In this document: positions 89 through 11,525 of the stretch, one piece after another
Numbering within the stretch: position 1 is the stretch's first letter
Layout: each line of letters begins with the position of its first letter
Assembly: GCA_029258795.1 (NCBI GenBank)
Contig: JAPDKB010000011.1
Location: 1 to 12,996 of the forward strand
Reading direction: 5' to 3'
DNA from: an archaeon
GTDB lineage: Archaea; EX4484-52; WAPT01
Length of the DNA stretch: 12,996 nt
Program-made: the position numbers and the translations under genes
The notes under the pieces: model-generated
Database searches by the model: none
What the model was told of the DNA's origin: nothing
Seen by the model: only the letters and a program-made list of their open reading frames with translations

Positions 89-196
89 ATGCCTAAAAGG
101 TTGGGTGAAGAGCACATTCAGTTTATAGTTGAAAGGTTAAAACAAGGAAAACCTTTGCCGGAAGAATTTAAATGGTTGTTGTTTGGAGGTAGGTAA
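89..196 (+). pseudogene. 35-aa ORF, probable truncated N-terminal remnant of a type III Mod-like site-specific DNA methyltransferase
   Basis: Translates to MPKRLGEEHIQFIVERLKQGKPLPEEFKWLLFGGR*. The pattern 'I.E.L..GKPLPE.(F/Y)K..LF' matches, from memory, the N-terminal helical segment of many Mod-like methyltransferases, which normally continues into an 'EL.(W/Y).GK' motif. Here it stops at TAA 194-196. Not in the supplied ORF track. Confidence 0.55.
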
Positions 197-239: not shown

Positions 240-3200
240 ATGATGATAAATAGAACTCGCTTAAAGGTAGAATTAAGTAATCTTCTGCCTAAAATTAGAA
301 CACCCGAGCATATTTTTAATTTATTTCACTTGTTAAATTATCCTAAAGATTGTTTTTTTGATACAAGTTATAAAAGAAAACCAGAAAAGTTCGATCTCAA
401 AGTTGGGGAAAAAAAGAAAATAAAAAATATTTATACTATTTTAAAATTCCAAGAAAACTTAACAGTTTTTCTAGTTGAGGTTAAAACACTCTCCTCTGTG
501 CTAGTAAGATATCTAGCAAAGTTTTTTTCTGATAATTATGATTCTGTTTTATTAGTAATAACGAAAGATTATCATAATATTTTATTTGTTTTACCTGATT
601 ACGAGAGAGGACAAAAGGGAAAACCTAGACTAAAAATTACGAAATTGTATGTTGAAAGAGGAGAGCCGTACTATACTGCCCTAGAAATCTTATCTAATAT
701 AGCCTATGAGGGTGAATCAGATTGGAGGAAAATAAAAAGAAAATGGCAGGAAGCATTTAATGTAGAGAGAGTAACAGAAAAATTCTTTGAAGATTATAAA
801 ACTATTTTCTTTAAGATTAGAAATTATCTTCTCAAGCAAAAGATAGGTAGAAAAGAGGCTCACCAATTTACTTTACAGTTACTTAACAGAATTATGTTTG
901 TTTACTTTGTGGCAAAAAAAAGATGGCTAAATAATGATACGAGATTCATGAGATTTTTCTGGCAAAGATATTTAGTTGAAAGAACTAAAGGAAATGTAAA
1001 GAAAGATAGTTTCTATGATATTTGGCTTAAGCAATTATTTTTTAAAGCATTTAATAACAGACAATCGGAGATTACAGATTTACCAAAGGATATAAAGGAA
1101 ATGTTCTATGATTTCCCTTATCTTAATGGTGGTTTATTTGCAGAAAATGAATTAGATAAATTAAATGTCAAACTAACTGACGATCTTTTCAAAGAAATTT
1201 TTTTATTTTTTGAGAAGTACAATTTTACGATAAAAGAAGACATGCCTTTAGAAAGGGAGGTTGCTGTTGATCCAAAGATGATCGGTTATGTTTATGAATC
1301 TCTTGCTAATGTAGCTGAGGAAATTTATGATAGGAACGATTTGGGTATTTTTTACACTCCTACTATTGAGGTCTATTTTATGTGTAGGAGATCCTTAGTA
1401 GAATATTTGTCAAACCATCTTCCTGAAATACCAAAAGAAAAAATTTACGAATTTGTATTTGATGAGGATAAAGAAAAAGTAGAGAAATATTTTGATAAAA
1501 TAAATGCTTGGAGAAGGATAAAAGATGTATTAGACAATCTTTCTGTTGTTGACCCTGCATGTGGTTCTGGCGCGTTTTTAGTAGGAATGATGAATGTTCT
1601 GTATGAATTATATAAAATTGTTTTTAAACATTTGGGGAGGAAATGGAATGCTTTTGATTTGAAAAGTTCGATAATAAGCAGATCACTTTATGGGGTAGAT
1701 GTGATGCCTTGGGCAATTCGTGCTGCTGAATTGAGATTATGGTTACAATTAATAATAGAAACAGAATTTAGCAAAGAAGATCTAAAGAAAAGACCTTTAT
1801 TGCCAAATCTAAATCTTAATCTTAGAATTGGAGATTCTTTAGTTCAGGAGATAGGAGGAATGATGATTAGTTTGAAAAGTCCAGATATTTCTGAAAGGTT
1901 AAAGAAAAAACTCTACTGGCTGAAAAAAGAAAAGGAGAAGTATTTCTTTAATATCTCAAGTGAATTTATTAGTAGAAAAGATATACTGAAAGAGGAAGTA
2001 AAGCTTTTTGAGGAAATTATAGAAGAAAGAAAAAGAAAACTTTTGAAAAAGAGACAATTACTCGAAGAGATATCCAAAAATAAAAAAGCTTCACAAAAAT
2101 CCTTATTTAAAACGGTATCAAAATATGATAAGATTTCTTTTGGCGAGATAGAAAAACGAAATATAAAACAATTATTGGGAAAAATCCCTTCAAGTTTAAG
2201 CGAATTTAATAAGTTAATTCAAACACAGATTGAGAGGATTGATAAAGAAATAGGTGAACTAGAAAAAATAAAAGAAAACCTAGAAGATCCTGAAAAGAAA
2301 CCTTTTATTTGGGAAATTGATTTTGCCGAAATTTTTGGAGATAAAGGTGGGTTTGATATTGTTATTGGGAATCCTCCCTATGTAAGGCAGGAAAAGATTT
2401 CTCCACCTAATAAGACAAAAGCTGAGGTAACTTTAGAAGATAAAAGAGAGTATAAAGAAAAGTTGATAAAATCTGTAAAGAACAGATTTCCTATAATCGA
2501 AAAAATAGATAAGAAGAGTGATTATTACATTTACTTCTATTTCCATGGCTTGAGTTTGTTGAATGAGAAGGGTGTATTTTGTTTCATAACTTCAAATTCT
2601 TGGCTGGACGTAGAATTTGGTAAAGATTTACAAGAATTTCTCCTAAAATATGTTCCAATAGTTGCTATCTATGATAATCCAAAAAGAAGTTTCGAGCATG
2701 CAGATATAAACACGATAATTGCTCTATTTGGTGCTCCTAAAATTGAAGAAAAATTGATAGAAGATCTAAAAATAGAAACTAATAACTGGTCAATGTTAAA
2801 CCATATTGCTAAATTTGTAATGTTTAAAAAACCATTTGAGGAGGTTTTAACTTCCGAGAACTTAATTAAAATTGATGAAATCGATATTAAAGTTAAACAT
2901 AAAGAACTGATGGACTTGGTCGATAATGTGCTTAATACCGAAGATTTCAGAGTTTTTCCGATTTTGCAGGGGGATTTACTTAAAGATGGATGGGAATATC
3001 CAGAAAATTACGACAAAAATAAAGGAAGATTTAAAGCTGGGCAATATGTAGGGAATAAATGGGGTGGGAAGTTCTTAAGAGCTCCAGAAATCTTTTACAC
3101 AATTTTGAAGAAGGGAAAGGGGAAATTGGTTAGATTGGGAGATCTTACTAAAGTTAGAAGAGGATTTACGACAGGTGTGAACGATTTCTTTTATTTACCA

Positions 3201-4022
3201 AGTAAATATTTCGATATTAAGGAAGAAGGAAATTATTACAAATTAATTCCTAAGCAAGATGGATTACCAAAGGATATTAAGATAGAAAAAGAATTTCTAA
3301 AACCTGTTATAAAATCTCCAAGAGAATGCAAAACGATCATAATAAAGCCAGAAGATTTGAAACACAAGGTTTTCATTTGTAACAAATCAAAAAAAGAATT
3401 GAAAGGAACGGGAGCTTTGAAATACATTGAATGGGGAGAGAAGATGAAGTTTAATAAAGTACCGACTGTGGAGGGGAGAAAATATTGGTGGAGTTTAGGT
3501 GAAAGAAAAATAAGTGATGCATTATGCATGATGAGTTATAATGATCGTCATATCTTTTGGAAAAATGGAAAGTTTTTAGTAGATGCCAGATTTTATGATA
3601 TTTATGCAAAAAAAGAATATTCCAAAAATCTAATATTCTCTTTAAATTCAACTATAACTTTCTTAAGTGTAGAATTAAATGGAAGAATAAACCTTGGTGA
3701 AGGTGCTCTTGATTTTAAAGTTTATGAAGCTAAAAATATTATGATTTTTTCTCCTATAGCAATCTCAATTAAAAACATGAATAAAGGATTGCTGACTCGT
3801 GAAATCCGCTCAATCTTCGAAGAACTCGGTTTCGATCCTTCCAGACCGATTCGTGGGCAAGAGCCGAATCCTCTACCAGACAGAGCCGAGCTTGACAATA
3901 TTATTTTTGACGAACTCGGTTTAACCGAAGAGGAGAGGAAAGAGGTTTATTGGGCTGTTGCCGAGTTGGTGAAACAAAGGTTGGAAAAGGCGAGAAGTTT
4001 GAAGAAAAAAGGAGGGGTGTGA
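240..4022 (+). CDS. Eco57I/type IIG-like N6-adenine DNA methyltransferase with C-terminal target-recognition region (about 1260 aa)
   Basis: YLNGGLF, GIFYTP (motif X), SAM-binding motif I DPACGSGAFL (1551-1580), LYGVD, GDSL, catalytic motif IV GFDIVIGNPPY (NPPY 2370-2381) and FITSNSWL: gamma-class order typical of Eco57I-like enzymes. Start placed at ATG 240 (ATG 243 possible) rather than TTG 183, which lies inside the upstream remnant ORF. No clearly intact PD-(D/E)XK site seen in the N-terminal domain, only a weak VEVK. Confidence 0.9.
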   Translation: MMINRTRLKVELSNLLPKIRTPEHIFNLFHLLNYPKDCFFDTSYKRKPEKFDLKVGEKKKIKNIYTILKFQENLTVFLVEVKTLSSVLVRYLAKFFSDNYDSVLLVITKDYHNILFVLPDYERGQKGKPRLKITKLYVERGEPYYTALEILSNIAYEGESDWRKIKRKWQEAFNVERVTEKFFEDYKTIFFKIRNYLLKQKIGRKEAHQFTLQLLNRIMFVYFVAKKRWLNNDTRFMRFFWQRYLVERTKGNVKKDSFYDIWLKQLFFKAFNNRQSEITDLPKDIKEMFYDFPYLNGGLFAENELDKLNVKLTDDLFKEIFLFFEKYNFTIKEDMPLEREVAVDPKMIGYVYESLANVAEEIYDRNDLGIFYTPTIEVYFMCRRSLVEYLSNHLPEIPKEKIYEFVFDEDKEKVEKYFDKINAWRRIKDVLDNLSVVDPACGSGAFLVGMMNVLYELYKIVFKHLGRKWNAFDLKSSIISRSLYGVDVMPWAIRAAELRLWLQLIIETEFSKEDLKKRPLLPNLNLNLRIGDSLVQEIGGMMISLKSPDISERLKKKLYWLKKEKEKYFFNISSEFISRKDILKEEVKLFEEIIEERKRKLLKKRQLLEEISKNKKASQKSLFKTVSKYDKISFGEIEKRNIKQLLGKIPSSLSEFNKLIQTQIERIDKEIGELEKIKENLEDPEKKPFIWEIDFAEIFGDKGGFDIVIGNPPYVRQEKISPPNKTKAEVTLEDKREYKEKLIKSVKNRFPIIEKIDKKSDYYIYFYFHGLSLLNEKGVFCFITSNSWLDVEFGKDLQEFLLKYVPIVAIYDNPKRSFEHADINTIIALFGAPKIEEKLIEDLKIETNNWSMLNHIAKFVMFKKPFEEVLTSENLIKIDEIDIKVKHKELMDLVDNVLNTEDFRVFPILQGDLLKDGWEYPENYDKNKGRFKAGQYVGNKWGGKFLRAPEIFYTILKKGKGKLVRLGDLTKVRRGFTTGVNDFFYLPSKYFDIKEEGNYYKLIPKQDGLPKDIKIEKEFLKPVIKSPRECKTIIIKPEDLKHKVFICNKSKKELKGTGALKYIEWGEKMKFNKVPTVEGRKYWWSLGERKISDALCMMSYNDRHIFWKNGKFLVDARFYDIYAKKEYSKNLIFSLNSTITFLSVELNGRINLGEGALDFKVYEAKNIMIFSPIAISIKNMNKGLLTREIRSIFEELGFDPSRPIRGQEPNPLPDRAELDNIIFDELGLTEEERKEVYWAVAELVKQRLEKARSLKKKGGV

Positions 4023-4025
4023 AAA

Positions 4026-4907
4026 ATGATAGTAAAACCTCATACAAGCCTAAAACATAGGATTTTAGGAGTATATTTTAAAATATGCAGAGAAGTGGCT
4101 AAAAGGAGGGATTTATACTATGTAGACCTCTTTGCTGGCGATGGAGAAGCAAAATGTGAAGAGACACCAATAAAAAAATGGGATTCTCCTCTAATACATT
4201 CATTATTGAAAAATGCTGAAAAAGAGAATCTAAAACTACACTGTTTTTTAAATGAATTAGATAGAACAAGATATGAGAAATTAAAAGAAAAAGTATCATC
4301 CTATAATAAATATGTAGAAGATATAGAAAATGAAGATGCAAACAAAATATACAAAAAATTTTTGGAGAACATACCAAAAAATCAATGGTCTATTTGGTTC
4401 TTAGATCCCAGCAAACACTCAGATTTAAAATGGACTACCATAGAAGGAATTGCTAATCACAAGGGATGGGACAATATAAGTAGAGTAGAGAGAAAACCAG
4501 AATTAATTATAAATTTTATGACTTATACAATGCAACGAAGTATAAGGAGAAATGATGAAAGTATTACAGAAGCATTAGGAACGGATGTATGGAAAGAAAA
4601 AATAGAAAAAAATCCTAAAACTCCTGTATATGAAATATTTTTAAAGCTGTTTTTAGATCAACTCGAAAGATTAGGATATAACTGTACTTGGTTTTCAATA
4701 GAACAAACTCCCCCTCAGAGAACGCATCTTTATTATCTAATATTTGCAAATAATATCCCTTCCGCAATAAAAATAATAGCTGAAAAATTTGCTCCTTGGA
4801 TTAAAAGGACTATTAGAGATAAGTGGACAAAAGAAAATTTCAAATGGAGAATGATGACAAAAGCTAAAAAGCAAAGATATAAATTATTATGTGAATATGG
4901 GGGATAA
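4026..4907 (+). CDS. tcmP: Three-Cys-motif partner protein (TcmP family; class I SAM-dependent methyltransferase-like fold)
   Basis: Family motifs in the expected order: HT.LKH.IL..Y, YVDLFAGDG (4119-4145), DSP, FLNELD, DAN, FLDP, W.TI, ELIINF, YYLIFA. SD-like GGAGGGGTG at 4011-4019. The symbol refers to the three-Cys-motif partner family, not the tetracenomycin methyltransferase. Confidence 0.8.
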   Translation: MIVKPHTSLKHRILGVYFKICREVAKRRDLYYVDLFAGDGEAKCEETPIKKWDSPLIHSLLKNAEKENLKLHCFLNELDRTRYEKLKEKVSSYNKYVEDIENEDANKIYKKFLENIPKNQWSIWFLDPSKHSDLKWTTIEGIANHKGWDNISRVERKPELIINFMTYTMQRSIRRNDESITEALGTDVWKEKIEKNPKTPVYEIFLKLFLDQLERLGYNCTWFSIEQTPPQRTHLYYLIFANNIPSAIKIIAEKFAPWIKRTIRDKWTKENFKWRMMTKAKKQRYKLLCEYGG

Positions 4908-4908
4908 A

Positions 4909-6903
4909 ATGGATTTGAAATGTCCTATTTGTGGATCTGAAATGAAAATAGACAGAAAATCAAAATTAGCCGAATGTATAAATTGCGGATTGATTGCTTG
5001 GTATTATGAAGAGCAAACAAAAATGAAGCATAAAGTATTCGAAGATTATTTTGATAAATGGGTTAAAATTCTCGGTAAGTACTATAAACTAAATTATGTT
5101 GATGGTTTTGCTGGAGCAGGTTTATACTATGATAGAAATGGTAACTTCCATTATGGTTCTCCGATCTTAGCTGCAAATATAATAAGAAAAAATAAGAAAA
5201 AAGCCAACTTAGTTTTAATAGATAAAAATGAGAAAATTCTTAGTAATTTAAAAAAAATTATTGATTTTATAGAATTAGATAAATCATCGAATTTGAAAAT
5301 ATTTATTATTTCTAAAGATTTCAATTCAACTATCAATGAAATACTAAAAACTACAAATGGTAACTTGGCACCCACATTTGTTTTTGTGGATCCGTTCGGA
5401 TTTAACGATGTAAAATATGAGACTTTGAAGAATATTATGGAAAAGGTGCCAAAGCCAGAAATATTAATAAACTTTATGTTTAATGCTATTACAAGATTTC
5501 TAGGGATTAGAAATCTTTCTAAAAGTTTTAAAGAAGTATTTGGGTTAAAAAATTGGAGAGAAGCACTTGAAAAAATTCAAGGCACTCGCGAAGATAAGGT
5601 ATTACAACTTTATATTTCTCAACTTAAAAAAATCTCAAAATTCGTTTTTCCTTATAGATTAACTTTCCCTCGTAAAAGAAGGACATATTACTATCTTATC
5701 CATCTTACTAACTACTTAAAAGGAGCTTCTATTATGAAATCTAGTTTTGCGAAATATTCATATGGGAGGGTTGAATGGCTTGGAACTTATGGAGGACAAA
5801 TGAAATTAACAGAAATAGGTACTGTAAAGCTCAGCGAAATAAAGGGCTATTTACTCAAAAAATATGATAAGAAAAAAATTACTTTTAAACAAATAATTGA
5901 AGAAAATATAGATACGACATCATATCTTGAAAGCGATTTTAGAAAAGTAATTAAAAAATTAGAAAAGGAGGGCATTGTGTATGTAGAAAGATTTCCGAAA
6001 ATTGGTAAAAATGGTAAACCTCGGGCTGGCTTAGATCTCAATGATGTCATTTATTTCAATACATTCCCAAGCATCAAAAGAAAAACACTTCTTTACAGAA
6101 CAAAAGTAGAGTATGGAAATTTTACAATAAATCACATTTTAGGATGTTCACATGGATGTAAATATCCATGTTATGCATGTATGCTTGCAATTAGATATGG
6201 AAAGGTTAAAGATTATGAAGATTGGATACATCCAAGAATTGTGTCAAATGCTTTAGAATTATTGGATAAGGAAATACCCAAATATAAAAAGGAGATCGAT
6301 TTTGTTCATCTATCATTTACAACAGATCCTTTTATGTACGATCCTGTAAATAAAAGAGTATACCCACAGATAAAAGAATTGACATTAAAAATTATTGAAA
6401 AATTAAATAAAAATGGAATAAAAGTGACTGTATTAACAAAAGGTATATTCCCTAAAGAGCTTGTAAATTTTGATAAATTCAGCAAAGAGAACGAGTATGG
6501 TATTACATTAGTTTCCTTAAATGAAGATTTTAAAAAGAAATTTGAGCCTTATTCTGCTCCTTTCGAGGAGAGAATATCTTCTTTAAAATTCCTTCATGAA
6601 AATGGGCTTAAGACATGGGTAAGTATCGAACCTTATCCTACACCAAATCTTGATCCAGGAGCATATAATATTGAAAGGCTTTTGAATACAATCAAATTTG
6701 TTGATAAAATAATTTTTGGTAAATTAAACTATAATGTGAAATCAAATAAATTTGAAAATAATGAAGAATATTATAGGGAATGTGCAAAAAAGGTAATCGC
6801 TTTTTGTAAAAAATATGGAATTAAATATCATATAAAAGAAGGCACACCTTATAGCAATAATAAAACTAAAACTATCTTTAAGAATGACAAAAAACTCTTC
6901 TAA
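4909..6903 (+). CDS. tcmP: Fusion protein: Zn ribbon + TcmP-family SAM-binding domain + probable winged helix + SPL-like radical SAM domain
   Basis: CPIC-x14-CINC (4921-4986). TcmP motifs KHKVFEDYF..W, YVDGFAGAG (5095-5121), GSP, FVFVDPFGF, EILINFM, YYLIHLT. wHTH-like YLESDFRKVIKKLEKEG. Radical SAM part: INHILGCSHGCKYPCYAC (Cys 6145-6180), SFTTDPF, VLTKG, GITL, FEP, ERI..LK.L...G.KTWVSIEP, as in SplB-like proteins. Start placed at ATG 4909, 1 nt after the upstream stop; GTG 4891 and ATG 4897 are alternatives. Confidence 0.8.
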   Translation: MDLKCPICGSEMKIDRKSKLAECINCGLIAWYYEEQTKMKHKVFEDYFDKWVKILGKYYKLNYVDGFAGAGLYYDRNGNFHYGSPILAANIIRKNKKKANLVLIDKNEKILSNLKKIIDFIELDKSSNLKIFIISKDFNSTINEILKTTNGNLAPTFVFVDPFGFNDVKYETLKNIMEKVPKPEILINFMFNAITRFLGIRNLSKSFKEVFGLKNWREALEKIQGTREDKVLQLYISQLKKISKFVFPYRLTFPRKRRTYYYLIHLTNYLKGASIMKSSFAKYSYGRVEWLGTYGGQMKLTEIGTVKLSEIKGYLLKKYDKKKITFKQIIEENIDTTSYLESDFRKVIKKLEKEGIVYVERFPKIGKNGKPRAGLDLNDVIYFNTFPSIKRKTLLYRTKVEYGNFTINHILGCSHGCKYPCYACMLAIRYGKVKDYEDWIHPRIVSNALELLDKEIPKYKKEIDFVHLSFTTDPFMYDPVNKRVYPQIKELTLKIIEKLNKNGIKVTVLTKGIFPKELVNFDKFSKENEYGITLVSLNEDFKKKFEPYSAPFEERISSLKFLHENGLKTWVSIEPYPTPNLDPGAYNIERLLNTIKFVDKIIFGKLNYNVKSNKFENNEEYYRECAKKVIAFCKKYGIKYHIKEGTPYSNNKTKTIFKNDKKLF

Positions 6904-7717
6904 AAAAGTGGATAACATAAGTAAATCTGTAATTAAAAAAATAAAAAAAGAAGTTGAAAAAAGCGGGCATCCTGTTAGTTTGAAAACTTCAATTATTTTA
7001 AATAAGAAAGGTTGGTATGTGAGAAATGCGCCCAGATACTTTGATTCAAATTTAAAAATTTCTCGTGAAATAGATATTGTTGCACAAAAGAAATCTATTT
7101 ATGTAAAAGATGCTATTGATGTATTAATTATTGAATGCAAAAAATCTAAAGGTAAGCCTTGGGTCTTTTTTAGACAAAATAAATTTAATGCTGATGTACT
7201 ATCACTTAATGTAGATATGGCAGAAACGACTGAAGGTGCAATTTATGATTGGTTAGGGAAGCATATATTCAAAAAACATTATTATTACAAAAGACCTTGC
7301 CATACCTACTACTTTGTAGCTAACGCAAATCCAGCTAGTAAGGCAGGTAAGCAAATTTTTGATGCAACAGAGCAAGTCCTAAGTGCCTTAAGATTTTATT
7401 TGGTACAAAGATTTAATTTATTTTCAGAATATAGACTAAAGCCAAAAATTCCCACGTTTTTTTATCCAATAATTGTTTTTGATGGGAAGATGTTTGAAGT
7501 ATCGGTTGAAGAAGCGGATATAAATATAAAAGAAACAGATTGGATTTCTCTGTGGATAGAAAAAGAACTTAAAGAACCGTTACTTATGAAATTCTTATAC
7601 AGACAAGGTTTTCGCAGAGTAGTATACTCAAAACCAATTGTAATCGATATTGTAAAACTCGATTACTTTGAAGAATTTTTAAAAAATTTTGATAAGTTAA
7701 GTAGTGATCAAAAATGA
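6884..7717 (+). CDS. PD-(D/E)XK restriction-endonuclease-fold protein
   Basis: SGHP...GWYV....YFD.....REIDIVA (7064-7084)...LIIECKKS (E 7133-7135, K 7139-7141)..PWVFF...FYPIIVFDG: D and ExK catalytic arrangement. Overlaps the upstream gene by 20 nt (alternative GTG at 6908) and the downstream gene by ATGA. Confidence 0.7.
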   Translation: MTKNSSKKVDNISKSVIKKIKKEVEKSGHPVSLKTSIILNKKGWYVRNAPRYFDSNLKISREIDIVAQKKSIYVKDAIDVLIIECKKSKGKPWVFFRQNKFNADVLSLNVDMAETTEGAIYDWLGKHIFKKHYYYKRPCHTYYFVANANPASKAGKQIFDATEQVLSALRFYLVQRFNLFSEYRLKPKIPTFFYPIIVFDGKMFEVSVEEADINIKETDWISLWIEKELKEPLLMKFLYRQGFRRVVYSKPIVIDIVKLDYFEEFLKNFDKLSSDQK

Positions 7718-10700
7718 CAATTCCACCACAGATAATAGACAACGAAAGAATAAAGCTTTTGGATTTTATAGTTGGTATTCTCAAAGACAGTCCTAATACC
7801 AATCTAGATATCGCTACAGCTTTCTTCAACATCAAAGCTTTTGAAATGATAAAGGATTATGTTAAAGGTATCAAGAGGTTCAGGCTTCTTTTGGGAAAGG
7901 CACCAGAAATTAAAAGTGATAAAACATTAGGTGAGGAGTTACTAAGGATTATTAAAGAAGAGGTTGAAGGTTTGGAATTATCAAAAGAAAATGAGGATAA
8001 TGTAAAAACTTTTATTGAATTTTTGAAAAAATCGAATGTTGAAGTAAGAATCTATGACAAACAATTTTTGCATGGAAAAGCATTCATATTCGATAAGGCA
8101 GTTATTATCGGCTCCTCAAATTTCACTCCTGCTGGCTTAACTCACAATACAGAATTAAATTCAGTACATTTAGAAGCCCAAGCAGAATACGTAAGAAAAA
8201 ATTGGTTTGAGAAATTCTGGCAGGAAGCAAGAGATTTTAAAGAAGAATTAATTGAACTCTTAGAAGCTTCAAGATTTGGAAGTAAAGAATATACTCCTTA
8301 TGAGGTATTTATTAAAGTTCTTTATGAATTGCAAAAAGAAGATATACTTGAACAAGAAAAGATGGAAGAAAGAGAAGGTGCTATTTCTTCCAAAGTTGAG
8401 TTATCAGAGTTTCAGGAAGATGCTGTAATAAGAGTGAAATCAAGATTAAAGAAGTATGGTGGGGTAATAATCGCTGATTCTGTTGGTTTGGGTAAAACAT
8501 GGATAGCAAAGAAAATAATAGAAGAATTTGGTTTTTATGAAAGAAAAAATTTCCTTGTGATATGCCCTCCACAATTAAGAAAAATGTGGAGTGATGAGAT
8601 CAAAAGCATAATGTTACCAGCAAATGTAATGTCTTTAGAAGAGCTTGCATCTGAAAAATTTCTAGAGAAGGCAAACGAGATTACTTCAGGTCATTTAGAA
8701 GATGTCGAATTAGTAATTGTAGATGAAAGTCATAATTTAAGAAATCCTTTGTCAAATAGATGGGAAAATTTCTATAATTTAGTTTGGGAACATATAGCAA
8801 AAAAAGGAAAAAGACCCTATCTTATATTTTTAACCGCTACACCTATTAATAACACAATTTGGGATCTGTATTGGCAAATAATGCTAATAGTCGGAATGGA
8901 TAGAACAGCCTTCATTAAAGAAGGGATCTCAGACTTATTTAAATTCTTCAAAGAAGTTGATAAGAGAGGAGATGCAACTTTACTGAATGATCTCTTAAAC
9001 GAAATATCAATAAGGAGAACAAGAGAGTATATAAAAAAGAATTATCCTAATGCGACTATAAAAGGTAAAAAAATAACATTTCCAGAAAGAATTCTTGAGA
9101 ATATAGAGTACAAATTGGGAGAAACCTATAGAGGGATGTATAAGAAAATAGCAAAAACAATAGCTGAAGACCTTACAATGGCGTGTTATCAATTACTGAA
9201 ATACAAAAAAGTTGAGAAGCTCAGTAAAGAAGAAGAATGGGAATTAAATGGGATGATTGCATTGTCTGGAATTTTAAAAACCATTTTTTTAAAAAGATTA
9301 GAAAGTAGTGTAGAAGCTTTTAGAATAAGTGTTAGGACACATATTCATTTTCTTCAAAAACTTAAGGAGTATATGAAGAAAGGAAAACTTCTAACAAAAT
9401 CAACTTTCAATAAGTACATTATGTGTTTGGATGAAGAGATAGAGAAATTTGAGGATAGATTAGAAAAGTTTAATCCAAATGAATATAACATAGATGAATT
9501 GTTTTCAGATATAGACAAGGACATAAAAATTTTAAAAGAAATTTTAAAGTCCGTTGAAGAAATAACACCAGAGAAAGACGCTAAGCTCAACGTAGTAAAG
9601 AAAAAACTATTAGAATTATCAAAAAAAGGTCAAATAATACTGTTTACTTATTATGAGGATACTCTAAATTATATTTGGAATCAGCTACAAAACTCCAAAG
9701 AATTTAAGAAACTAAAAATAGAAAAAATATCTGGTTCTACTTCAACACGCGAGAGAATAAGAATAGAAAAGGACTTATTAGCGAAAAAGATTGATATTTT
9801 GTTAAGTACAGATGTACTCTCGGAAGGAACGAACTTGCAATCGGCACGAATTATAGTTAACTATGACTTACACTGGAATCCTACGCGCATGCTACAAAGA
9901 GCAGGAAGAATAGACAGGATAGGTTCTCCTTATAAGAAAATTTTTGTTTTTAATGTGTTCCCAGAAGATGAGCTTGAAAGTTTGCTAAAGTTAGTGCAGA
10001 TCCTTCAAACTAAAATTACAAAGATAGATGAGGCTATAGGTTTAGATCAGAAAATTCTGGGAGAAGAGATTCATCCTAAAGTATTTGGTATAATTAGAAA
10101 GATAAGAATGTGCGATACAAAAATTTTAGATGAGTTAGATGAGATGGCTTTTGGAGGTGGAGAAAAATTCTATCAGCCAATAAAAGATTTCATGAAAAGG
10201 CGTGGGTTGGAGGAGTTGAAAAGAATTGAAAAAATTCCTTACGGGATACACAGCGGTCTTAAAAAAGGTATAAGAGGTATTTTCTTTTATTATAAATACT
10301 CTGATTTGTTTCATTTTTGGTATTTATATGATATTGAAAATAAAAAATTTATTACAAATAAATCGGAGATAATAGATTTTATTTCATGCTCGCCAAATGA
10401 AAAAAGAGTAATTCCAGAATTCTCCCAAAAAGTATATGAAATAAATGCTCGAGTGATCCAAAAAATAGAAGAAAATTATAAAGAATTCGAACAAGAACAA
10501 AAAGTGGATACCGAATTAGTAAGAATAGTTAAAGATAAAAGTTCGAGATTTATAAGGGATGTGATAAAAGAAGTTGAAATTTGTATCGATGAACATCTTA
10601 TAGAACATCCAGATGATCAAGATGTAATCTCTTTATGGGATAATGCAAGAAATAAATTGTTAACAATCTCTTTAACAAAAAAAAGATTACAAATTTTAAG

Positions 10701-10857
10701 AAAGATATGGAAAAAGTATAAAAAAACTGGTGATTGGAAACAACTAATAAGAGAAATTTGGAATTTTGTTAAGCAATTGAGTTCTAGGAAAAGAACAGAA
10801 ATTCCACAGTTTGAAAAGAATAAACTAAAGCTTGTTGCAATAGATTTCATTTCCTAA
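7714..10857 (+). CDS. Phospholipase D-family (single HKD) nuclease fused to SNF2-type SF2 helicase/translocase
   Basis: DIATAFF, HGKAFIFD (HxKx4D, 8071-8094) and GSSN (8110-8121). Walker A ADSVGLGKT (8473-8499), DESH (8722-8733), LTATP, KRLESS, TDVLSEG.NLQ, NYDLHWNP and motif VI QRAGRIDR (9895-9918). Confidence 0.92.
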   Translation: MTIPPQIIDNERIKLLDFIVGILKDSPNTNLDIATAFFNIKAFEMIKDYVKGIKRFRLLLGKAPEIKSDKTLGEELLRIIKEEVEGLELSKENEDNVKTFIEFLKKSNVEVRIYDKQFLHGKAFIFDKAVIIGSSNFTPAGLTHNTELNSVHLEAQAEYVRKNWFEKFWQEARDFKEELIELLEASRFGSKEYTPYEVFIKVLYELQKEDILEQEKMEEREGAISSKVELSEFQEDAVIRVKSRLKKYGGVIIADSVGLGKTWIAKKIIEEFGFYERKNFLVICPPQLRKMWSDEIKSIMLPANVMSLEELASEKFLEKANEITSGHLEDVELVIVDESHNLRNPLSNRWENFYNLVWEHIAKKGKRPYLIFLTATPINNTIWDLYWQIMLIVGMDRTAFIKEGISDLFKFFKEVDKRGDATLLNDLLNEISIRRTREYIKKNYPNATIKGKKITFPERILENIEYKLGETYRGMYKKIAKTIAEDLTMACYQLLKYKKVEKLSKEEEWELNGMIALSGILKTIFLKRLESSVEAFRISVRTHIHFLQKLKEYMKKGKLLTKSTFNKYIMCLDEEIEKFEDRLEKFNPNEYNIDELFSDIDKDIKILKEILKSVEEITPEKDAKLNVVKKKLLELSKKGQIILFTYYEDTLNYIWNQLQNSKEFKKLKIEKISGSTSTRERIRIEKDLLAKKIDILLSTDVLSEGTNLQSARIIVNYDLHWNPTRMLQRAGRIDRIGSPYKKIFVFNVFPEDELESLLKLVQILQTKITKIDEAIGLDQKILGEEIHPKVFGIIRKIRMCDTKILDELDEMAFGGGEKFYQPIKDFMKRRGLEELKRIEKIPYGIHSGLKKGIRGIFFYYKYSDLFHFWYLYDIENKKFITNKSEIIDFISCSPNEKRVIPEFSQKVYEINARVIQKIEENYKEFEQEQKVDTELVRIVKDKSSRFIRDVIKEVEICIDEHLIEHPDDQDVISLWDNARNKLLTISLTKKRLQILRKIWKKYKKTGDWKQLIREIWNFVKQLSSRKRTEIPQFEKNKLKLVAIDFIS

Positions 10858-11525
10858 TGAATTCCTACTTCTTAGGGTTTATTGGGGTATCTCTTCAACT
10901 TATTCTTATTTTGTCTATTAAAAGTTATTTACATCTTGAACGAGAAAAGCCGAATTTAAAAGATCAGTTTATTTGGACTATTGTTGGTCTTATTGGAACT
11001 TTATTTTTATTTTTCTTATTAAAAGTTTTTTTGCCTATAGATGAAAATAAGTCTAGTCTTTATAATGCTATATTTTTTATATTAGGGGTAACACCTCTTT
11101 TGGAAGAGTTTTTATATAGAAGAGTAATACTTCAACATTTCTTAAATTTAAAGGAGCAATCTTTTTCAATAAAGGAATTATTAGCATTAATATGGATGAG
11201 TATATCTTTAATTATTCCACCTACTTTTTTAGGACAATATACTTTAAAACATATTCTTTACACTTTTGTTGCTTTTTTACTTCCTTTCTGTTATTTTTCG
11301 TTTAAAAAATCAGAAAGGAAGAAACCTTTTATAAATTGTTTATCAAATCTTATTTTTTTAATTTCGCAGGATGTTTTGTTTGTTCTAGGACATGGAAGTT
11401 CCGCATCCATGTCTCTATTTTTTACAGGATTTTTATACGGTTTTCTTTATTTAGAGAGCAAAACAATTATACCCTCATTGATTGCACACTATTTCTATAA
11501 TTTTCTCATTTTTATTTATTCTTAA
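10857..11525 (+). CDS. CPBP (Abi / type II CAAX) family intramembrane glutamic endopeptidase
   Basis: Several hydrophobic segments; motif 1 PLLEEFLYR (EExxxR), motif 2 FVLGH (FxxxH), motif 4 SLIAHYFYN (HxxxN). TAATG overlap with the helicase stop. Confidence 0.8.
   Translation: MNSYFLGFIGVSLQLILILSIKSYLHLEREKPNLKDQFIWTIVGLIGTLFLFFLLKVFLPIDENKSSLYNAIFFILGVTPLLEEFLYRRVILQHFLNLKEQSFSIKELLALIWMSISLIIPPTFLGQYTLKHILYTFVAFLLPFCYFSFKKSERKKPFINCLSNLIFLISQDVLFVLGHGSSASMSLFFTGFLYGFLYLESKTIIPSLIAHYFYNFLIFIYS

Follow-up and report, generated by a model that had tools for sequence, protein, structure and literature searches.

Introduction

Two kinds of described systems come closest to the locus analyzed here, a run of six genes (g1 to g6) within 12,996 nucleotides (nt) of archaeal DNA (contig JAPDKB010000011.1, assembly GCA_029258795.1), a stretch to which we refer at its full length as the window. 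Type-2 BREX-related systems consist, according to the text of Rakesh & Krishnan 2026 (PMC12839542), of a DUF499 ATPase, an N6-methylase, an HKD-Swi2/Snf2 helicase and DUF3780, the last being encoded by a stand-alone gene in 98% of the taxa with such a system; the same text describes embedded back-up nucleases in BREX-related systems. For Hma systems, the main text of Payne et al. 2024 (bioRxiv 10.1101/2024.01.29.577857) gives a share of 62.7% that contain embedded genes and already describes the embedding of defence systems in others, there termed 'guilt-by-embedding'. With both kinds of systems the window shares an N6-adenine methylase (g1) and a Swi2/Snf2 helicase with an N-terminal HKD endoDNase (g5), as well as a presumed restriction-modification (RM)-like logic and the presence of embedded extra genes, which are frequent in both.

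A first-pass annotation of the window had seen in these genes a candidate for an undescribed composite defence system in which all parts cooperate. We arrive at a different picture: with a probability of roughly two in three, the window holds an RM-like frame made up of the outer genes g1 and g5, in whose slot the inner genes g2, g3 and g4 ride as autonomously acting passengers. Cooperation of all parts found no support, and both the embedding habit and the candidates PDC-M30A, PDC-M41A and PDC-M41B, to which the TcmP (three-Cys-motif partner) proteins of the window are related, were already described. The arrangement as such is ordinary: the stacking of defences in a restriction-like operon is already known.

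Results

The six genes are co-oriented on the plus strand and span positions 240-11525 of the window, which contains about 29% G+C and seven plus-strand genes in total. The open reading frame (ORF) list and direct reading of the junctions gave exactly the arrangement that had been described before: g1 (240-4022, ATG to TGA, 1260 amino acids (aa)) and g2 (4026-4907, 293 aa) are separated by 3 nt and g2 and g3 (4909-6903, 664 aa) by 1 nt, while g3 overlaps g4 (6884-7717, 277 aa) by 20 nt, g4 overlaps g5 (7714-10857, 1047 aa) by 4 nt (ATGA), and g5 overlaps g6 (10857-11525, 222 aa) by 1 nt (TAATG). The earlier domain assignments were likewise all borne out by Pfam, NCBIfam and motif evidence, the profile libraries used on the window proteins being Pfam, NCBIfam and PADLOC.

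The 5′ gene of the frame, g1, is a predicted gamma-class N6-adenine DNA methyltransferase of the Eco57I/MmeI/PglX type: it matches Eco57I (E 1e-26), MmeI_Mtase (5.9e-12) and N6_Mtase in Pfam as well as REase_MTase_IIG (1.2e-52), DrmMI (4.4e-23) and PglX (3.8e-16) in PADLOC, and its motifs I and IV read DPACGSG (residue 438) and NPPY (residue 711). The PADLOC type IIG profiles cover g1 solely from profile position 188 onward, and its N-terminal region showed no conserved nuclease motif, an E-V-K there not being kept in seven homologues. The 3′ gene of the frame, g5, is predicted to encode a phospholipase-D (PLD)-type nuclease with a single HKD motif fused to a Swi2/Snf2 helicase and is the presumed restriction effector. 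Its HKD nuclease domain (residues 95-169, nt 7996-8220; PLDc_2, 1.1e-11) precedes the helicase core (residues ~222-800, nt 8377-10113; SNF2-rel_dom, ResIII and Helicase_C, 1.5e-23), beyond which lies an uncharacterised C-terminal region; the motifs HGKAFIFD (HxKx4D), GLGKT and DESH are intact. In PADLOC, g5 matches C3a139 'HKD+Snf2' (1.4e-54), DrmD (4.8e-43), BrxHII (1.5e-30) and, partially and worse than these other helicase models, the Hma component HmaA (9.6e-29).

The window differs from Type-2 BREX-related and Hma systems in that neither the DUF499 AAA+ ATPase (HmaC; Pfam, NCBIfam and PADLOC) nor DUF3780 (Pfam) was detected among its seven proteins. Because methylase and HKD-helicase are present and DUF499 and DUF3780 were not found, the frame is, judged by its predicted gene content, a reduced relative of these systems and not a member. 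The comparison with more distant systems leads to larger differences. Class 1 DISARM offers counterparts to g1 (DrmMI-like, with the E-value given above) and to g5, in which a DrmD-like (4.8e-43) and a DrmC-like part (6.5e-7) are fused; however, no DrmB (DUF1998) was found in the window, a DrmA match (1.2e-20) falls on the generic helicase part of g5, and in NCBIfam the scores reach only 170 of the required 610 bits for DrmD and 15.6 of 133 bits for DrmC. The BREX proteins PglZ and BrxC were not found in the window either, and g1 attains 47-63 bits with the NCBIfam models of PglX, whose cut-offs lie at 400-900 bits. The similarity to Dpd and Dnd is generic only (DpdE 115 vs 500, DpdK 28.8 vs 100 and dnd_restrict_1 33 vs 600 bits). 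Thus, the first-pass view that the locus fits none of the gene sets of DISARM, BREX, Dpd and Dnd holds, with curated cut-offs widely missed and core genes not found. SauUSI, in which a PLD-family nuclease and an SF2 helicase motor are likewise joined in a single polypeptide, is modification-dependent and is not known to have a partner methylase; compared by description, g5 differs from it by its Swi2/Snf2 core and its cognate methylase. Finally, the cases of guilt-by-embedding in the main text of Payne et al. 2024 resemble the window in their same-strand, tightly packed passengers that lie between methylase and helicase genes and are also found alone elsewhere; here, in contrast, the host is a two-gene pair of methylase and HKD-Snf2 helicase which fits no curated cut-offs.

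The outer pair of g1 and g5 is a recurrent RM-like frame with a variable cargo slot. A plasmid search with g5 yielded 560 matching records, 41 of them at ≥80% coverage; 25 were listed and 15 opened, the ten unopened ones being Listeria plasmids akin to one that was opened. An Eco57I-family methylase gene (Pfam; 747-1375 aa) stands upstream of the g5 homologue on the same strand in 13 of the 15 loci, in one case interrupted by an IS630 element, and the upstream methylases of seven loci (L081-L087) are detectable as g1 homologues (tblastn E 2e-161 to 9e-8). The neighbourhood of an Eco57I-like methylase and a PLD-SNF2 helicase that the first-pass annotation had assumed is therefore a repeated one, and the nesting of an inner cassette between the two is real. 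Neither DUF499 nor DUF3780 is annotated in any of the 15 loci. Methylase and helicase are directly adjacent in four of them (L087, L088, L094, L095), and one to three genes intervene in nine: SMODS and SLATT_4 in Microcystis (L081), a 601-aa ORF with AbiEi and AbiEii in Thermococcus profundus (L082), a GmrSD-like DUF262 protein (GmrSD_N) and two further ORFs in Deinococcus radiophilus (L083), a sigma-70-like protein in Planktothrix (L085), and unknown ORFs in five loci from Methanothermococcus, Nostoc and Calothrix (L084, L086, L091-L093). These cargoes are packed as tightly as those of the window. Since unrelated autonomous cargoes elsewhere sit equally close, the tight junctions are no argument for one machine, and the lack of intergenic room, which had been taken as a sign of a single system, loses its weight.

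Two plasmid loci depart from this pattern: in L090, a 2289-aa ORF (1014-7880) with sigma-70 region 2/3/4 and AAA domains stands upstream in place of the methylase, and in L089, from Listeria, the gene order differs. Sigma-70 region 2/3/4 domains thus occur both in this ORF and in the cargo gene of L085 (6432-7988). Moreover, according to the record annotation, a small helix-turn-helix (HTH) gene lies about 200 nt upstream of the methylase in four cyanobacterial frames (L086, L091, L092, L093), an arrangement that recalls RM controller proteins; no such gene is present in the window.

Within the slot of the window, g2 is, on the strength of its profile matches, a predicted stand-alone TcmP protein of a short subfamily that lacks the winged helix-turn-helix (wHTH) tail. 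It scores 113.3 bits against the TcmP model TIGR04474 (1.8e-32; cut-off 53) and matches PDC-M30A (4.5e-12) and PDC-M41A (3.7e-10) in PADLOC; its homologues fall into 70 clusters with a top non-self identity of 60%. The D-P motif and DxFAGxG are kept in both TcmP subfamilies, and g2 retains the columns that are invariant in both, namely D34 and G40 of DxFAGxG and D127-P128. We take the D-P motif to occupy the position of (D/N)PPY in amino-methyltransferases.

The neighbouring g3 is a fusion of a Zn-ribbon, a TcmP domain, a winged helix and a three-Cys/radical S-adenosylmethionine (SAM) domain. Its Zn-ribbon (residues 5-26, nt 4921-4986; CxxC...CxxC) is modelled with high confidence. The stretch that contains it (residues 1-33, nt 4909-5010) falls in mostly-gap columns of a 17-sequence alignment, and for this reason the ribbon appears to be an addition in g3 or a few relatives. 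The TcmP domain with its class-I SAM-transferase fold (residues 35-283, nt 5011-5757) reaches 181.7 bits with TIGR04474 (2.5e-53) and matches PDC-M30A (2.9e-25) and PDC-M41A (1.9e-10); it is followed by the winged helix (residues 305-357, nt 5821-5979; GMT-like wHTH, 4e-6, 27.6 bits, cut-off 27) and by the radical-SAM domain (residues ~389-650, nt 6073-6858; Pfam Radical_SAM PF04055, 1.7e-9, 38.5 bits, cut-off 29.5). In the AlphaFold2 model of g3 (pLDDT score, from the predicted local distance difference test, 82), the TcmP domain resembles SpeE, Trm1 and RlmJ/DUF519, which would place it among the class-I SAM-dependent transferases, nearest to aminopropyltransferases, Trm1 and the N6-methyladenine (m6A) methylase RlmJ/DUF519; a search of the g3 profile against solved structures gave no match. 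The winged helix between the two enzymatic domains of the model suggests a nucleic-acid substrate.

The nearest NCBIfam models of the radical-SAM domain are Rv2578c, PA0069 (SplB-like) and rSAM mobile pair B. The best of them, Rv2578c and PA0069, connect g3 to the spore photoproduct lyase-like/DUF5131 proteins; however, all scores lie far under the cut-offs, and the cysteine spacing differs. Across 17 g3 homologues the invariant cysteines are C413-x3-C417-x3-C421, that is CX3CX3C rather than CX3CX2C; the canonical CX3CX2C (C417, C421, C424) is present in the g3 of the window, but C424 does not belong to the conserved columns. Of the 30 named Atlas clusters nearest to g3, 27 carry Radical_SAM PF04055 alone and two more carry it with added DUF5131 (PF07505); among 120 listed of its 218 homologues, two also carry DUF5131, and the best relative among the matches listed is 71% identical. 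With the PADLOC candidates PDC-M41 and PDC-M30 the window has in common that g2 and g3 match the component A models (PDC-M41A at 3.7e-10 and 1.9e-10, respectively) and that the radical-SAM domain of g3 weakly matches PDC-M41B; it differs from them in the fusion of TcmP and radical SAM, the added Zn-ribbon and the second TcmP gene, which within one module was seen in the window only.

The literature on these proteins is sparse. RadicalSAM.org lists DUF5131 beside spore photoproduct lyase, as stated in the text of PMC9477430, and an expression table for S. meliloti lists a TcmP gene next to an Hna defence gene (PMC12445080). The names PDC-M30 and PDC-M41 are absent from the main text of Payne et al. 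2024 (10.1101/2024.01.29.577857), and two later papers that test or discuss PDCs concern other candidates in their accessible parts. Ophion, another radical-SAM defence system, differs in the gene set given for it in the accessible text. In the literature searched, which for Payne et al. 2024 and Rakesh & Krishnan 2026 means their main texts, we found no functional study of TcmP, DUF5131, PDC-M30 or PDC-M41.

The TcmP/radical-SAM pair is self-contained and horizontally mobile. Among genomes sampled at one per species, a pattern scan detected 522 relatives, from which 80 loci were retained, 79 of them having an anchor. When 775 neighbouring ORFs from these 79 loci were clustered all against all, one conserved family emerged, TcmP/radical SAM itself (79 loci), the next-largest family occurring in nine. 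TcmP is either fused to the radical-SAM protein or, in 50 of the 79 loci, encoded by a separate gene at position -1. The fusion g3 hence appears equivalent in domain content to a widespread two-gene pair, and the partnership of TcmP with a three-Cys/radical-SAM protein named in the first-pass annotation is confirmed. What does not recur is the trio of TcmP, radical SAM and nuclease between methylase and helicase that this annotation had looked to: no g4 or g6 homologue and no close g5 relative lies around any of the 79 g3 relatives, g5-like matches being weak and restricted to two loci. A g1 homologue adjoins a g3 relative in one locus only, L001, from a Methanophagales metagenome-assembled genome. 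There, the g1 homologue (6397-9978) is broken by a single in-frame TAA at 7315-7317, and an AAA_11/AAA_12 (Upf1-like) helicase gene lies upstream. Within these loci, the co-occurrence on which the first-pass annotation had staked its idea is thus largely lacking, with L001 as the exception.

To characterize the surroundings, Pfam was run on all 281 neighbours within three genes on either side in 74 loci, which revealed a mixed setting, though one rich in defence and mobile genes. Restriction or DNA-methylase components occur in 22 of them (21 without L072, where the component is a lone ResIII helicase); other neighbours are integrases, PIN, NYN, AbiEii, SMODS, RhuM/Fic, AlbA_2 and toxin-antitoxin genes, and purely housekeeping contexts exist in the Patescibacteria (L054, L055 and L063, with the conserved synteny ProRS-MreB ... 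GNAT). A quick-search tree of the radical-SAM domain with 78 rows shows archaeal and bacterial sequences intermixed. The label 'RM-adjacent' requires 21 changes for 23 rows, at least 13 of them forced by well-supported branches, and it clusters no more than in shuffles; because of these repeated changes, the association of the pair with RM loci has arisen many times. In L041 (7979-16284), a type-III-like mod gene (N6_N4 methylase) and a res gene (ResIII) flank a TcmP-radical-SAM fusion together with a HATPase_c_4 gene, so that the pair is found a second time, independently, inside an RM-like locus; a BrxC/BrxD-type ATPase gene is found upstream. Both phages (18 of 50,697 records, without a full-length match) and plasmids (20 records) rarely carry the pair; a phage origin of the frame or of the pair, which we considered, is rejected as their main habitat.

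In a few loci a possible nuclease gene neighbours the pair. NYN-domain genes adjoin it in L053 (715-1308), L072 (4456-5469) and L074 (11985-12566), and in L079 (2710-3918) and L080 (5920-7116), both from Omnitrophota, the gene immediately after the pair is a PLDc_2 gene; these neighbours may be recurrent partner nucleases in some lineages. In L048, an intein-bearing S-adenosylmethionine synthetase gene (4577-6451) is located two genes from the pair, and the latter comes after genes for an AlwI restriction enzyme and a methylase.

The third cargo gene, g4, probably encodes a stand-alone PD-(D/E)xK nuclease-like protein of an uncatalogued family, as suggested by its conserved residues and its modelled fold. 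No family match was found in Pfam, NCBIfam, PADLOC or PHROGs; D64, E84, C85 and K86 are invariant in 45 sequences and include the triad D64...E84-x-K86. The AlphaFold2 model (pLDDT 92.3, predicted template modelling score 0.90) gave no Foldseek match against the PDB at E≤1e-3 and none over its full length. Its fold agrees best, and only in part, with R2 restriction-like endonuclease domains, AF1548, McrC, Hjc, HinP1I and Cas4, of which only the R2 domains reach a probability ≥0.97, over about 60 columns. The homologues of g4 fall into 52 clusters and include one relative with 93% identity. A profile search extended the family to 5044 representative clusters at E≤1e-3 (314 at E≤1e-30); none of 37 sampled members belongs to a Pfam or PADLOC family, and the relatives (P0121-P0378) are mostly stand-alone proteins of 250-300 aa. 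Three other routes to the identity of g4 were abandoned: its profile produced chance-level matches only against solved structures (best E 0.011, an mRNA capping enzyme); in the Atlas it falls into unnamed clusters, the nearest named one being GAPS4 PD-(D/E)XK at 0.82, a lead only; and the one weak plasmid match (E 3e-4), beside two HTH genes in a methionine-salvage operon, is uninformative.

The relationship of g4 to its neighbours can be read indirectly from the lengths of the longest contigs in the match lists of g2 (70), g3 (120 of 218 listed) and g4 (52), which were compared by eye among the matches listed. No plausible contig beyond the window's own is common to them; the latter is present in just the lists of g2 and g4, the window's own g3 being missing from the g3 list, and contigs of 1897 and 2051 nt that recur between the g2 and g3 lists are too short for both proteins. 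The trio of g2, g3 and g4 was accordingly not seen elsewhere, neither in the 79 loci of g3 relatives nor on the listed contigs. Since one g4 relative is 93% and the best g3 relative 71% identical, g3 and g4 appear to have separate histories.

The remaining features of the locus concern its expression and composition. Ahead of g2 and g3 stand GGAGG and GGGGGA runs that resemble Shine-Dalgarno sites. For g3, a GTG at 4891 upstream of the ATG at 4909 is likewise open. Because the g4 homologues begin about ten residues later, the start of g4 may instead be a GTG near 6908, and the g3/g4 junction is tight in both cases. From g1 to g6 no terminator-like site was found on the plus strand except at 499-518 inside g1, with terminators occurring at chance level. 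Promoter-like matches amount to 47, compared with 62.7 ± 7.2 in shuffled sequences; as these are fewer than in the shuffles, the scan, which assumes sigma-70 promoters that the host may not use, is uninformative either way. The G+C content at third codon positions (GC3) is slightly lower in the cargo genes g2-g4 (0.205-0.209) than in the frame genes (0.246-0.261), and the codon frequencies of g1-g5 correlate at 0.82-0.96; both differences are too weak to support a recent insertion of the cargo, an idea we therefore dropped. No repeats bracket positions 4023-7713; only short imperfect AT-rich repeats were found, with no trace of an insertion mechanism. Scans of the window for tRNA genes and Rfam families returned no matches.

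Downstream of the frame, g6 is predicted to be a CPBP/Rce1-like intramembrane protease (Pfam Rce1-like, 4.6e-8, 33.7 bits, cut-off 22.4; the MrtJ model remains under its cut-off), co-transcribed by position, with its start on the last base of the g5 stop codon. It has no match in PADLOC, and tblastn found no g6 homologue beside the helicase homologues of L081-L089. A GH5 cellulase gene, which follows g6 after a gap of 387 nt, lies outside the unit. Upstream, a 35-codon ORF (89-196, plus strand) without PADLOC match ends 44 nt ahead of g1; its peptide presumably resembles the N-terminus of some adenine methylases and could be the remnant of an earlier RM gene.

Discussion

From these data, we propose the following mode of action for the frame and its passengers. 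As judged from their families, g1 would mark the host DNA with m6A at a specific site, and g5 would translocate on unmarked DNA at the expense of ATP and cleave it through the HKD domain; since each chain carries one HKD motif, it would probably do so as a dimer. The cargo g2-g4 would be transcribed together with the frame, yet probably act autonomously and in at least two units. One unit would be the TcmP/three-Cys radical-SAM module, formed by the fusion g3 with g2 as an extra TcmP paralogue, and is most likely a nucleic-acid-directed SAM/radical-SAM enzyme pair: this assignment is prompted by the predicted class-I methyltransferase fold with its DPFG amino-methyltransferase-like motif, the winged helix and the SplB/DUF5131-like Fe-S domain. 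The other unit would be g4 as a stand-alone PD-(D/E)xK nuclease, possibly a back-up effector. A defence function of these parts is likewise something we infer.

Several observations weigh against this reading of a frame with independent passengers. Given that neither DUF499 nor DUF3780 was found, autonomy of the frame as a restriction system is itself an assumption, and since the contig stops 239 nt upstream of g1, a further upstream partner, possibly an HmaC/DUF499 gene beyond the contig end, may exist. The match of PDC-M41B to g3 is weak (E 5.5e-4) and covers residues 397-451 only. Most of the contrary points, however, concern a link between the pair and methylases, and they are at the same time the support for a rival in which the six genes are one machine: TcmP and radical SAM would act on the DNA methylated by g1, adding a second self mark or hypermodifying or processing m6A, and g4 and g5 would read the combined mark. 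For this speak the translational coupling of the six genes and above all L001, where 2 nt separate the end of a g1 homologue (43% identity over 1223 columns) from the g3 homologue (62%) behind it and the contig contains no HKD-Snf2 helicase; owing to this arrangement the adjacency of g1 and g3 seems older than the window and could be functional. In 19 of 74 loci from many independent lineages, DNA-methylase domains turn up no more than three genes away from the pair, with at least 13 independent changes on the radical-SAM tree; the gene immediately upstream of the pair is an Eco57I-type methylase gene in L026, L074 and L046 and a fragment of one in L020. The 866-aa ORF upstream of the pair in L003 was rejected as a g1 homologue because it is not homologous. 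Methylase-like genes account for 23 of 358 neighbours at a distance of one to three genes versus 11 of 537 at larger distances (odds ratio 3.3, Fisher p 0.001), a figure that is biased upward because the queries were drawn from the near genes. Moreover, the TcmP fold is nearest to the amino-methyltransferases RlmJ and Trm1 and the radical-SAM domain to SplB-like, DNA-acting families. On the other hand, 52 of the 74 loci are free of RM genes up to three genes from the pair, several of them (L054, L055, L063) with a purely housekeeping context; the adjoining methylases belong to differing classes (Eco57I, N6_N4, D12, C5), which is a misfit with a chemistry built on one mark; unrelated autonomous systems occupy the same slot elsewhere; and g4 is absent from all 79 loci of the pair. 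Defence genes generally cluster with RM genes in defence islands, so adjacency alone is to be expected. We therefore hold a six-gene machine with two marks to be unlikely, and we are slightly more reserved still about the bolder form of the idea, that TcmP and the three-Cys radical-SAM protein are a new radical-SAM-dependent pair which modifies or damages DNA on or alongside m6A and is functionally coupled to methylases, for instance through a second-layer mark or a hypermodified m6A read by g4 and/or g5, beyond mere co-residence in defence islands.

Two further explanations also dispense with a single machine and divide the cargo differently. The pair might have no part in defence and consist of RNA (tRNA or rRNA) or DNA-repair enzymes, or of a selfish mobile module, that settled in a permissive slot. 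Its nearest structures, tRNA/rRNA methyltransferases and aminopropyltransferases for the TcmP domain, and the repair-type annotation of the nearest, SplB-like radical-SAM families would suit such a role, as would the housekeeping-only flanks with conserved synteny in the Patescibacteria (L054, L055, L063); experimental defence data for TcmP, DUF5131 or PDC-M30/M41 were not found in the literature searched. A role outside defence sits poorly, however, with the patchy distribution across both domains, with neighbours that are often integrases, toxin-antitoxin, Abi or RM genes, with the embedding between mod and res in L041 and with the TcmP gene beside Hna in the S. meliloti table (PMC12445080), which is why we regard it as quite improbable. 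Alternatively, the cargo could be a small RM-like unit of its own that rides in the frame, with g2 and g3 modifying DNA and g4 cutting DNA that lacks or carries this modification. The overlaps of g4 with g3 (20 nt) and g5 (4 nt), its invariant D...ExK triad in a confident model and the lower GC3 shared by the three cargo genes, small as this difference is, would agree with it. On the other hand, none of the 79 pair loci contains a g4 homologue, the match lists of g3 and g4 share no contig among the matches listed, the identities of the best g3 relative (71%) and of one g4 relative (93%) speak of differing histories, and for a g4 family of 5044 representatives a single pairing is observed. We consider this the least probable of the explanations. 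The RM-like frame with independent passengers agrees best with the recurrence of the frame with other cargoes and with the occurrence of the pair without the frame.

Conclusion

If an RM-like frame with autonomous passengers is the correct reading, the window would be one more case of defence genes stacked inside a restriction-like operon, and its value would be a practical one. The two-gene frame of methylase and HKD-Snf2 helicase without a DUF499 ATPase would offer a passenger-collecting slot that could be mined in the same way as Hma, BREX and type I RM loci. In the window, this slot draws attention to two groups of proteins: the g4 PD-(D/E)xK family, with about 5000 representative clusters and no Pfam or PADLOC model, and the TcmP/radical-SAM pair, with more than 500 relatives in species-representative genomes and a mechanism not described in the searched literature. 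Should it prove true that the pair performs methylation-linked radical chemistry on DNA, this would add a new type of nucleic-acid modification to the conflict between hosts and viruses.

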